This document shows, one piece after another, positions 1-42,237 of a DNA stretch of 64,000 nucleotides. The DNA is taken from the NCBI RefSeq assembly GCF_053078305.1, contig NZ_CP166879.1; one strand, 5' to 3'. The notes under the pieces were generated by a model. It was not told where the DNA came from. It saw only the letters and a list, made by a program, of their open reading frames with translations, and did not search any database. Every line of letters starts with the position of its first letter. Positions within the stretch are counted from its first letter, which is position 1. The position numbers and the translations under genes were made by a program.

Positions 1-270
1 AACGACGATATGGCGATAGGTGCGATGAAAGCGTTGCACGAGCGCGGCGTAGCGGTGCCAGAGCAGGTGTCAGTTATCGGATTCGATGATATCGCTATTG
101 CCCCCTACACCGTTCCGGCGCTCTCCAGCGTAAAAATTCCGGTGACTGAGATGATTCAGGAAATTATTGGACGGCTGATTTTTATGCTCGATGGCGGGGA
201 TTTCTCACCGCCGAAAACCTTCAGCGGAAAACTGATCCGCCGCGACTCACTCATTGCTCTTTCGCGATAA
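1..270 (+). CDS. ascG: LacI-family transcriptional repressor, C-terminal part (5' end outside window); AscG-like by synteny
   Basis: Frame-1 ORF open from the window edge to a stop at 268-270; translation (..VSVIGFDDIAIAPYTVPALSSVKIP..) is a LacI/GalR-type C-terminal domain; sits directly upstream of hydN-hypF as ascG does in K-12. Confidence 0.7.
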   Translation, partial: NDDMAIGAMKALHERGVAVPEQVSVIGFDDIAIAPYTVPALSSVKIPVTEMIQEIIGRLIFMLDGGDFSPPKTFSGKLIRRDSLIALSR

Positions 271-283
271 ACATTGTCATCAC

Positions 284-311
284 ATGTCATCGTCACTAGT
301 GTCGATGACAT
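284..311. promoter_or_regulatory. 28-bp near-perfect inverted repeat (atgtcatcg-N-cactagtg-N-cgatgacat), candidate regulator binding site upstream of hydN
   Basis: Palindrome read directly from sequence; lies about 80 bp upstream of a sigma54-like element, as an enhancer-binding-protein site would. Confidence 0.35.
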
Positions 312-365
312 CTTTTTTTCCTGCATTACAGAAATTAATTTCCTTAAATAACAGTGAATTAAAAA

Positions 366-384
366 CTGGCATGATTTGTGAATG
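366..384 (+). promoter_or_regulatory. Candidate sigma54-type -24/-12 promoter element for hydN-hypF (imperfect: TGGCAT-N5-GTGA)
   Basis: TGGCAT matches the -24 box; the -12 GC is replaced by GA; about 35 bp upstream of the hydN start. Confidence 0.25.
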
Positions 385-419
385 TATCGGCGCATTAACT
401 GTCATTGCTGGAGAATTTG

Positions 420-947
420 ATGAACCGTTTCATCATTGCTGACGCGAGTAAATGTATTGGTTGCCGTACCTGTGAAGTGGCGTGCGTGGTTTCTCATCAG
501 GAAAATCAGGACTGTGCATCGCTGACCCCGGAAACATTTTTACCGCGTATCCATGTCATTAAAGGTGTGAACATTTCCACGGCGACAGTTTGCCGTCAGT
601 GTGAAGATGCACCGTGCGCTAACGTCTGCCCGAATGGTGCTATCAGCCGTGATAAAGGGTTTGTTCATGTGATGCAGGAACGTTGCATTGGTTGCAAAAC
701 CTGCGTTGTGGCTTGCCCGTATGGCGCGATGGAAGTGGTGGTACGTCCGGTGATCCGCAACAGCGGCGCGGGTCTGAATGTACGGGCTGACAAAGCCGAA
801 GCCAATAAATGCGACCTGTGCAACCATCGTGAAGACGGCCCGGCGTGTATGGCGGCTTGCCCGACTCATGCGCTGATTTGTGTCGATCGTAATAAACTTG
901 AACAACTGAGCGCAGAAAAACGTCGCCGCACGGCGCTGATGTTCTAA
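420..947 (+). CDS. hydN: Formate-dehydrogenase-associated 4Fe-4S ferredoxin-type electron transfer protein HydN
   Basis: ORF 405..947; translation from the internal Met ([22 protein letters not shown]..) has multiple CxxCxxCxxxCP ferredoxin motifs and matches HydN; start trimmed to the ATG at 420. Confidence 0.9.
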
Positions 948-6245: not shown

Positions 6246-6291
6246 AGCAACCTCAATTTATTCAGCGTGTTCTAAAAAGATGTCTTGCTAA

Positions 6292-6309
6292 TTGCAGATT
6301 GCGTGCCAG
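6292..6309 (-). promoter_or_regulatory. sigma54 (-24/-12) promoter of norVW
   Basis: Minus-strand reading cTGGCACgcaatcTGCAa fits TGGCAC-N5-TTGCA; located about 50 bp upstream of the norV ATG. Confidence 0.75.
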
Positions 6310-6363
6310 TTTTTTATCTGATTGTTTTTACTCTATAAATAAAATTATGCTCATTAGTGAGTA

Positions 6364-6419
6364 GTCAAAATGACTATCAATCAAATGGTCGATATGACAA
6401 TATCTATAGTCAAATTGAC
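6364..6419. promoter_or_regulatory. Three NorR enhancer sites (GT-N7-AC): gtcaaaatgac, gtcgatatgac, gtcaaattgac
   Basis: Three evenly spaced GT-N7-AC motifs at 6364-6374, 6388-6398 and 6409-6419 in the norR-norV divergent intergenic region, upstream of the sigma54 promoter. Confidence 0.8.
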
Positions 6420-6431
6420 AGTGAGGCAAAG

Positions 6432-33953: not shown

Positions 33954-34163
33954 GCAATAGAAAGATTCCTGTTATTTGTTTATGTCGATATATTACCCAA
34001 TGGAAATAGTCACTTTTTTCTACCCTAACATACTGAGAATCTGAGGCAACCCCTGATGGCAAATGTGGCATGAATATTGATGCGAGCAAATCGCCGGAAT
34101 TTCCCGTGATATAAGGGCTGAGAGCAAATCGAGAAAAGTTGATATTTTTTGTCAAAGATAGCG

Positions 34164-41570: not shown

Positions 41571-42237
41571 GCTAATGCTCCTTAATAAAAGCGTAATGGG
41601 ATGTTAATGGAGATGAAAGCAGTGGATCTCATTGCCATCTGCATTTTCGCATAGCGTATATCGCTGACTATGACTAATCAATTAGTGAAAAATTTTTATT
41701 TAGTCAGTTTTTGTAGATAAAATATTCCGTAACGGCTCGTTTTTTGTACATTGTGGATTTTTACATGCCGATATGATTTATTTTCAATTAAATCAATTAG
41801 ATATGACCTTTCCTTTAATTTCACTAATGAAAGTTTGGGGGTGAGGTAACGCTATAAGCGTAGAGAATTCGGTGTATGTCGTGACCGGGTCATTTACAGC
41901 ATTTTTTATGCCAGAAAATGTACATTAACAGCAGAAAGCACCAGTGAGTGGTGTTTTCTTTTATTCTGTTATATTGCATTTTTATTCACTTCGGTTTTGT
42001 CAGGCTTGCGGAATTAGCGAGCAGAGAGCGCCACTCTGTTCACCAATAACCTAAATTACTCATCAAAATGGCTAATATATAATCTTGAAATTATTCTGAG
42101 AGTTTCAGAAAATAACAGCTGAAATAATCTCGCGCAGGACTGTAAATAGATTAAATTTTGTGGAAATATAATAAGTGATCGCTTACACTACGCGACGAAA
42201 TACTTTTTTGTTTTGGCGTTAAAAGGTTTTCTTTATT

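Follow-up and report, generated by a model that had tools for sequence, protein, structure and literature searches.

The ascG-hydN-hypF locus

The first 1.2 kb of the window (the whole 64,000-nucleotide stretch of DNA that was analysed) corresponds to the ascG-hydN-hypF locus of E. coli, in reverse-complement orientation when compared to K-12. Many E. coli chromosomes match it at 99.3% identity and have ascG, hydN and hypF annotated there, and the K-12 annotation and the open reading frames concur with this assignment. The features of the region are as follows.

1 to 270, plus strand: 3' end of ascG, encoding a LacI-family repressor; open reading frame 10 to 270 with the stop codon TAA at 268-270, annotated as ascG in the 99.3%-identical genomes and in K-12.
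275 to 281, no strand: extra half-site TGTCATC, a perfect complement of 304-310 and the putative third pentamer unit of the enhancer.
284 to 311, no strand: 28-bp palindrome, the proposed FhlA enhancer (upstream activating sequence, UAS) of hydNp, as suggested by its complementary arms, uniqueness, conservation, phasing and shared words.
291 to 304, no strand: inner core CGTCA-ctag-TGTCG of the palindrome (pattern YGWCA-N4-TGWCR), present once in 64 kb, where chance alone would give about one copy (0.9 expected); the definition of the pattern is post hoc, made after the sequences had been inspected.
312 to 336, no strand: non-conserved spacer, with an information content of about 0 and a length that varies by about one helical turn between species.
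313 to 319, plus strand: run of seven T directly 3' of the palindrome, preceded by a C at 312 and resembling, together with the hairpin, an intrinsic terminator.
349 to 361, plus strand: IHF-like element TAACAGTGAATTA, a 7/9 match to WATCAANNNNTTR, part of an A/T-rich block of moderate conservation (about 337-361).
366 to 382, plus strand: sigma-54 promoter hydNp, CTGGCATGATTTGTGAA, with the -24 GG at 368-369 and GA at 380-381 in the -12 position; assigned from a published sigma-54-bound site and from conservation.
393 to 419, plus strand: predicted 5' untranslated region of hydN, with +1 at about 393 as deduced from the position of the -24 element (G369 = -24).
420 to 947, plus strand: hydN coding sequence (4Fe-4S electron-transfer protein), starting with ATG at 420; open reading frame and annotation.
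From 1100, plus strand: hypF, downstream of hydN.

Both the palindrome and the promoter are situated within the 149-bp spacer between ascG and hydN, and positions 275-382 are the control region of the hydN-hypF hydrogenase-maturation operon, an ordinary and already characterised one. hydNp is reportedly the sigma-54- and FhlA-dependent promoter of this operon in E. coli, and is said to have been described as such by Maier, Binder and Bock in 1996. Transcription of hydN is predicted to begin near position 393; this start, derived from the assignment of G369 to -24, agrees with the 27-nt "distance" to hydN listed in Table 1 of PMC4591121. A Shine-Dalgarno sequence, GGAG, is located at 410-413.

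An Rfam scan of positions 1-1500 yielded nothing in the ascG-hydN intergenic region; the sole match was a sub-threshold one to naRNA4 at 1010-1061, in the hydN-hypF spacer (20.5 bits compared to a gathering score of 59.5, E = 0.7). naRNA4 is a REP-derived nucleoid-associated RNA, and 1010-1061 is probably a REP-like palindromic element.

A conserved palindrome phased to the promoter

The two arms of the palindrome, 284-297 (ATGTCATCGTCACT) and 298-311 (AGTGTCGATGACAT), are complementary at 13 of 14 positions and directly abut each other. When the whole 64-kb window was scanned for palindromes with 14-nt arms, up to one mismatch and a spacer of 0-6 nt, this was the only one of its class, with about 0.01 expected per spacer class. 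A preliminary description of this DNA had already recorded both the near-perfect 28-bp inverted repeat and the related tgtcatc half-site ahead of it, and both are confirmed here. The same description had placed the repeat about 80 bp upstream of the promoter element; this is correct for the stretch between the first base of the palindrome (284) and TGGCAT at 367, whereas the GG is about 70 bp away from the palindrome centre (297/298).

Conservation was assessed in 80 hydN loci from the Enterobacteriaceae, one genome per species. The palindrome, in the form TGTCATCGTCA-N4-TGWCGATGACA (that is, TGTCATCGTCA-N4-TG(A/T)CGATGACA), was present upstream of hydN in 79 of the 80 species, whether or not ascG was the neighbouring gene. 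In an alignment profile three conserved blocks stood out from the unconstrained sequence between them: the palindrome arms at 285-310, an A/T-rich stretch at about 337-361, and the -24/-12 region with the ribosome-binding site. The first of these, which in the window reads TGTCATCGTCA-ctag-TGTCGATGACA and is centred at about -95 from the predicted start, displays a near-maximal information content that drops to about 0 in its flanks. Of the 22 arm positions, all but two are essentially invariant, while the four central bases are free to vary (19 different tetranucleotides), and the only variable mirrored pair of the arms, pair 9, is a T.T mismatch in 24 of the 79 species. Invariant arms that tolerate such a mismatch fit recognition by a sequence-specific protein rather than selection for a hairpin. 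Of the palindrome, the most divergent loci (L058, L060 and L063) have kept the inner core, and in most genera a [TC]G[TA]CA unit stands just 5' of the palindrome, with a start-to-start distance of 7 nt in most species and 10 nt in Escherichia.

The distance between the palindrome and the promoter falls into two discrete classes. Counted between the -24 GG and the centre of the palindrome, it is 58-61 bp in one class (30 species) and 68-71 bp in the other (49 species), with no species at 62-67 bp. It is in the non-conserved spacer that the difference of one turn arises, as the A/T-rich element and the GG are a fixed distance apart. Spacing quantised in whole turns is as expected if a protein bound to the palindrome must face the polymerase. 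The palindrome is thus a real and highly conserved element, phased to the hydN promoter in whole helical turns.

Resemblance of the palindrome to a terminator of ascG

In the window the palindrome also has the form of an intrinsic terminator, a likeness (seven T, 14 nt after the ascG stop codon) to which the preliminary description made no reference. Transcribed into RNA, positions 284-311 would form a hairpin of -12.5 kcal/mol with five G-C pairs, beginning 14 nt after the stop codon of ascG and followed by C plus U7 at 312-319; the fold of the wider segment 265-325 reaches -14.4 kcal/mol (z = -3.2). Moreover, an ascG-like stop codon lies 10-14 nt ahead of the palindrome, often overlapping the extra half-site, in 66 of the 69 sequences that carry an ascG-like gene upstream.

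One possible explanation for the palindrome is accordingly that it is primarily a rho-independent terminator of ascG and has no part in the activation of hydN, but the comparative data make this very unlikely. Across the hydN loci the T-run has an information content of about 0, and of the 69 sequences in which an ascG-like gene precedes the palindrome only 13 have a T-rich tail, as opposed to 7 of the 11 in which none does; the palindrome itself persists where ascG is absent. Since the T-run is neither conserved nor tracks the upstream gene, a role in termination cannot explain the conservation of the palindrome. Its arms are invariant instead of covarying, with pair 9 mismatched in 24 of the 79 species as described above, and its spacing is phased to the downstream promoter and not to the upstream gene. 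A consensus terminator scan of positions 1-1200 did not call the hairpin either, owing to the T.T mismatch in the stem next to the loop.

Within Escherichia the T-run is polymorphic: T7 in the strain examined here, G plus T5 in K-12 (L005) and T6 in Escherichia sp. E1V33 (L011). This polymorphism shifts the quality of the terminator and, by 1 bp, the spacing between enhancer and promoter. Fifty-six of the 69 ascG-bearing sequences have no T-rich tail. It is possible that the palindrome serves in E. coli as a terminator of ascG in a secondary and evolutionarily recent role.

Relation of the palindrome to FhlA enhancers

Upstream activating sequences of FhlA are reportedly known at fdhF, hyc/hyp and hyf, and are said to go back to the work of Birkmann and Bock in 1989, Schlensog in 1994 and Leonhartsberger in 2000. 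The FhlA-dependent enhancer regions of these operons, taken from K-12, were compared with the region upstream of hydN. The hyc/hyp enhancer word G-TGTCAT-TT-CGACA-T equals the hydN arm A-TGTCAT-CGACA-C with two T added, so that the hydN arm TGTCATCGACA and the hyc word TGTCATTTCGACA share their recognition words. The fdhF enhancer contains the core CGTCA-aaac-TGACG (CGTCAAAACTGACG) 79 bp upstream of the fdhF GG, and the hyfA enhancer the core CGACA-cggg-TGTCG (CGACACGGGTGTCG) 103 bp upstream of the hyfA GG; both follow the same YGWCA-N4-TGWCR pattern as hydN, the core of which is 69 bp from the GG in K-12. In contrast to hydN, the hyc enhancer has no strict core of this pattern. Five to six YGWCR pentamers are found within about 40 bp in each of the K-12 enhancers, that of hydN included, and WTCGWCR heptamers number two to three per enhancer, compared to a background of 0.33 per 200 bp. 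With its centre about 70 bp from the GG (at about -95), the hydN palindrome is also located where a UAS is expected, some 70-150 bp upstream of a sigma-54 promoter.

The preliminary description had looked to FhlA motifs as a check on this assignment, and here the published motif proved to be of little help. The published FhlA consensus, CATTTCGTACGAAATG, finds no match in the palindrome, and the best score that it reaches in the hydN region, 9/16, lies outside the palindrome. The footprinted hyc and fdhF enhancers likewise reach only 9/16, a level that occurs 337 times in the window; because true enhancers score no better than these 337 sites, the 16-mer is non-discriminating, and as a string it cannot separate real FhlA enhancers from background. 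The half-site CATTTCGT has no match of at least 7/8 anywhere in the hydN region, since the hydN arms lack the TT of the hyc word. A rigid 13-nt half-site matrix derived from the 32 distinct hydN palindromes, which is overfitted, produced only a moderate match in the hyc enhancer (CATCATCGACATT, 9.5 bits) and none in the fdhF enhancer.

Taken together, the shared words suggest that FhlA binds the palindrome upstream of hydN. The published record points in the same direction: hydN-hypF is listed as an FhlA target in Salmonella (PMC3844500; PMC4987338), and according to a 2025 review formate and FhlA enhance the expression of hydN-hypF as part of the formate regulon (PMC11841067). FhlA is described as a tetramer with helix-turn-helix domains that contact one side of the DNA, in the passage of PMC11291172 that cites Leonhartsberger 2000, and such a tetramer on one face of the DNA would fit four phased half-sites. 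A search of the literature turned up no genome-wide FhlA binding (ChIP-exo) study, and FhlA site sequences are absent from the Proteus FhlA paper and the FhlA-formate preprint.

Similar words were also observed elsewhere in the locus. In the K-12 ascF promoter region (L005, 2166-2180), about 50 bp upstream of ascF, the sequence CCGTCACGTCGAC holds CGTCA, CGTCG and CGAC words as in the FhlA enhancers; this may be due to chance.

A further scenario is that the palindrome serves another sigma-54 activator with a related DNA-binding domain, NorR or HyfR. HyfR is reportedly a paralogue of FhlA that acts at hyf, as attributed to Skibinski in 2002. As for NorR, both hydN arms fit its loose core GT-N7-AC, its operon is about 3 kb away, and a single base separates its site 2 in the window (TGTCATATCGAC) from the FhlA word of hyc, TGTCATTTCGAC. 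The fit does not extend to the full site: NorR sites are 11-bp units of the form GTCA-N3-TGAC, and the hydN arms, GTCA-TCG-TCAC and GTGT-CGA-TGAC, each break the inner dyad. The literature, moreover, assigns hydN-hypF to FhlA and formate, and to our knowledge norVW is the only accepted target of NorR in E. coli. We therefore consider an activator other than FhlA to be very unlikely. By eye, neither the GlrR-type TGTC-N10-GACA nor dyads of the CRP, FNR and ModE types fit the palindrome.

The three NorR sites of the norR-norV intergenic region (about 6370-6430, minus strand), GTCAATTTGAC, GTCATATCGAC and GTCATTTTGAC, are nearly the same word as the hyc FhlA word and the hydN arm TGTCAT-CGAC. It seems that NorR and FhlA, which are both GAF-domain activators, recognise DNA words that are closely related.

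The sigma-54 promoter

The element TGGCAT-N5-GTGA had been noted in the preliminary description as resembling a sigma-54 -24/-12 promoter with a non-consensus -12, an observation that stands: the GG at 368-369 lies within TGGCAT, and GA occupies 380-381 where GC is expected. By the rule of GG and GC ten bases apart (TGGCAC-N5-TTGCW), hydNp possesses the GG and fails on the GC. A weight matrix was constructed from 41 other published E. coli intergenic sigma-54 sites, with hydN excluded. hydNp scored 11.1, which is within the span of the known sites (9.1-20.8) but below 39 of the 41, and ranked 15th among the approximately 128,000 positions of the window, as weak as had been suspected. On sequence alone, the element does not rise above chance.

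The view that the sigma-54-like element is a chance match, and that hydN is transcribed from a sigma-70 promoter, could thus appeal to the low score, the rank and the missing -12 GC. It is nonetheless highly improbable, as the reality of hydNp is founded on published sigma-54 ChIP-seq data and on conservation rather than on the matrix score. The 17-mer CTGGCATGATTTGTGAA is letter for letter the sigma-54 ChIP-seq site OS26 assigned to hydN, with a fold-above-threshold score of 11 (PMC4591121; Bonocora et al. 2015), and occupancy of hydNp by sigma-54 is taken from this identity; OS26 also carries the EcoCyc flag "C", denoting an experimentally confirmed promoter (PMC4591121). In vitro, a genomic-SELEX (gSELEX) peak of the RpoN holoenzyme falls within the hydN/ascG spacer (PMC8743547). 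The orthologous site of Salmonella, TGGCACGATTCGTGTATA, is likewise occupied by sigma-54, and there hydN-hypF displays a 13-fold, sigma-54-dependent rise (PMC3844500). A TGG-N9/10-TG element is present 50-55 nt before the ATG in all 80 hydN loci, with a high information content at 361-382, and a consensus promoter scan of positions 1-1200 identified no sigma-70-like promoter. Functional sigma-54 sites without a -12 GC are not confined to hydN; pspA and pspG (TTGTA) and glnH are other examples (PMC4591121). The doubt that the preliminary description had cast on the promoter because of the -12 mismatch was therefore legitimate as far as the sequence goes, but the ChIP-seq data and conservation decide the matter in favour of a real promoter, and hydNp illustrates that a promoter doubtful by sequence can be real. 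The other alternative put forward there was an AscG-type operator, by which the palindrome would bind the LacI-family repressor encoded next to it. This idea draws only on adjacency and dyad symmetry and has a negligible probability: the operators of the ascG-ascF intergenic region, GTGACCGGTTTCAC and GTGAAACCGGTTTC, share no words with the palindrome, and E. albertii, Salmonella, Cedecea and further loci have kept the palindrome although no ascG-like gene ends upstream of it.

The departure from the consensus recurs in the other species. None of the 79 Enterobacteriaceae hydN promoters has the consensus at both -24 and -12: TGGCA[CT] at -24 is always combined with TGA or TGT at -12 (50 species), and TGGAAC, TGGCTC or TGGCG[CT] at -24 always with TGC at -12 (29 species); the 79 species are phylogenetically non-independent, the TGC class nevertheless holding three different degraded -24 variants.

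Immediately upstream of the -24 element, the IHF-like sequence keeps a fixed distance from the GG and agrees with WATCAANNNNTTR at 8/9 or better in 39 of the 80 sequences, for instance as AATCAATAAGTTA in Enterobacter. This agreement makes 349-361 a candidate site for the binding of IHF at hydN.

The matrix also pointed to other sigma-54-like sites in the window. The second-ranking one, CTGGCATAAAAAATGCT at 41898-41914 on the minus strand, scored 16.8, above the median of the known sites; it is situated in the 667-bp unannotated alaE-stpA spacer, pointing toward alaE from about 330 bp upstream, and is absent from the main text of the sigma-54 ChIP-seq study of E. coli. Two further high-scoring sequences, both on the plus strand, are GTGGCACGCAAATTGTT at 58794-58810, inside the autotransporter gene ypjA, and GTGGCATGAATATTGAT at 34065-34081, which is the published antisense site OA04 near ygaC (PMC4591121).

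Interpretation of the control region

The region is best read as the sigma-54 promoter hydNp preceded by an IHF-like bend site and, further upstream, an FhlA enhancer, a reading to which we assign a probability of roughly 0.85. The formate/FhlA control of hydN-hypF through an enhancer and a promoter, as envisaged in the preliminary description, is thereby supported by the ChIP-seq site OS26, the Salmonella data, the conservation in 79 of 80 species and the phasing. According to this reading, sigma-54 RNA polymerase would occupy CTGGCATGATTTGTGAA (366-382) as a closed complex that is unable to start transcription alone. Formate-sensing FhlA would bind the palindrome TGTCATCGTCA-N4-TGTCGATGACA (285-310) and the half-site at 275-281, centred at about -95. 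The DNA is probably bent at 349-361, where the A/T-rich, IHF-like element directly precedes the -24, and this bend would allow FhlA to touch the polymerase and to use ATP in opening the promoter.

A more speculative joint reading, which we regard as possible but rather doubtful, is that hydNp has been kept sub-consensus and FhlA-dependent in all lineages and that the Escherichia palindrome acts in addition as the ascG terminator. If this were true, the sub-consensus promoter and the two enhancer distances would reflect selection for a weak closed complex and strict dependence on FhlA.

As a discovery the region carries little weight, hydNp being EcoCyc-confirmed and hydN-hypF a textbook member of the formate regulon. 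The spacing quantised in helical turns, the -24 and -12 elements that are never both consensus, and the possible doubling of the palindrome as an ascG terminator in Escherichia may be new. What is gained is a sharper description of the hydN enhancer, namely a 26-bp dyad with an extra half-site and a spacing in whole helical turns, which could guide FhlA footprinting or the design of synthetic formate-responsive promoters.

Comparison with known systems

Compared to the known hydNp of E. coli, the region has the same locus, an identical promoter 17-mer and the same gene order, ascG-hydN-hypF. The intergenic differences from K-12 are limited to the T-run (G plus T5 in K-12, T7 here) and one base in the A/T block; nothing substantive differs, the spacer of the present strain being one base longer and its T-run longer.

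Intrinsic terminators are matched by the hairpin of -12.5 kcal/mol, the U7 and the position 14 nt after a stop codon, but the hydN stem is conserved in sequence rather than covarying and its U-tract is unconserved.

The norVW control region, in the same window (about 6290-6430; Tucker et al. 2004, 2010), similarly combines multiple dyads of the GTCA/TGAC type, some 70-130 bp upstream, with a GAF-domain activator and an A/T-rich block (AATCAG...AAAAACTGGCA) directly upstream of the -24; IHF has been reported to bind between the norV enhancers and the start site. The NorR enhancers are three separate 11-bp sites, whereas hydN has one compound palindrome and a half-site, and the effector is NO for NorR as opposed to formate for FhlA.

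The fdhF, hyc and hyf enhancers are resembled by hydN in its pentamers and heptamers and in a location 70-100 bp upstream of the -24 element. Its site differs from these in being a clean 26-bp dyad, the arms of which are without the TT of the hyc word TGTCAT-TT-CGACA.
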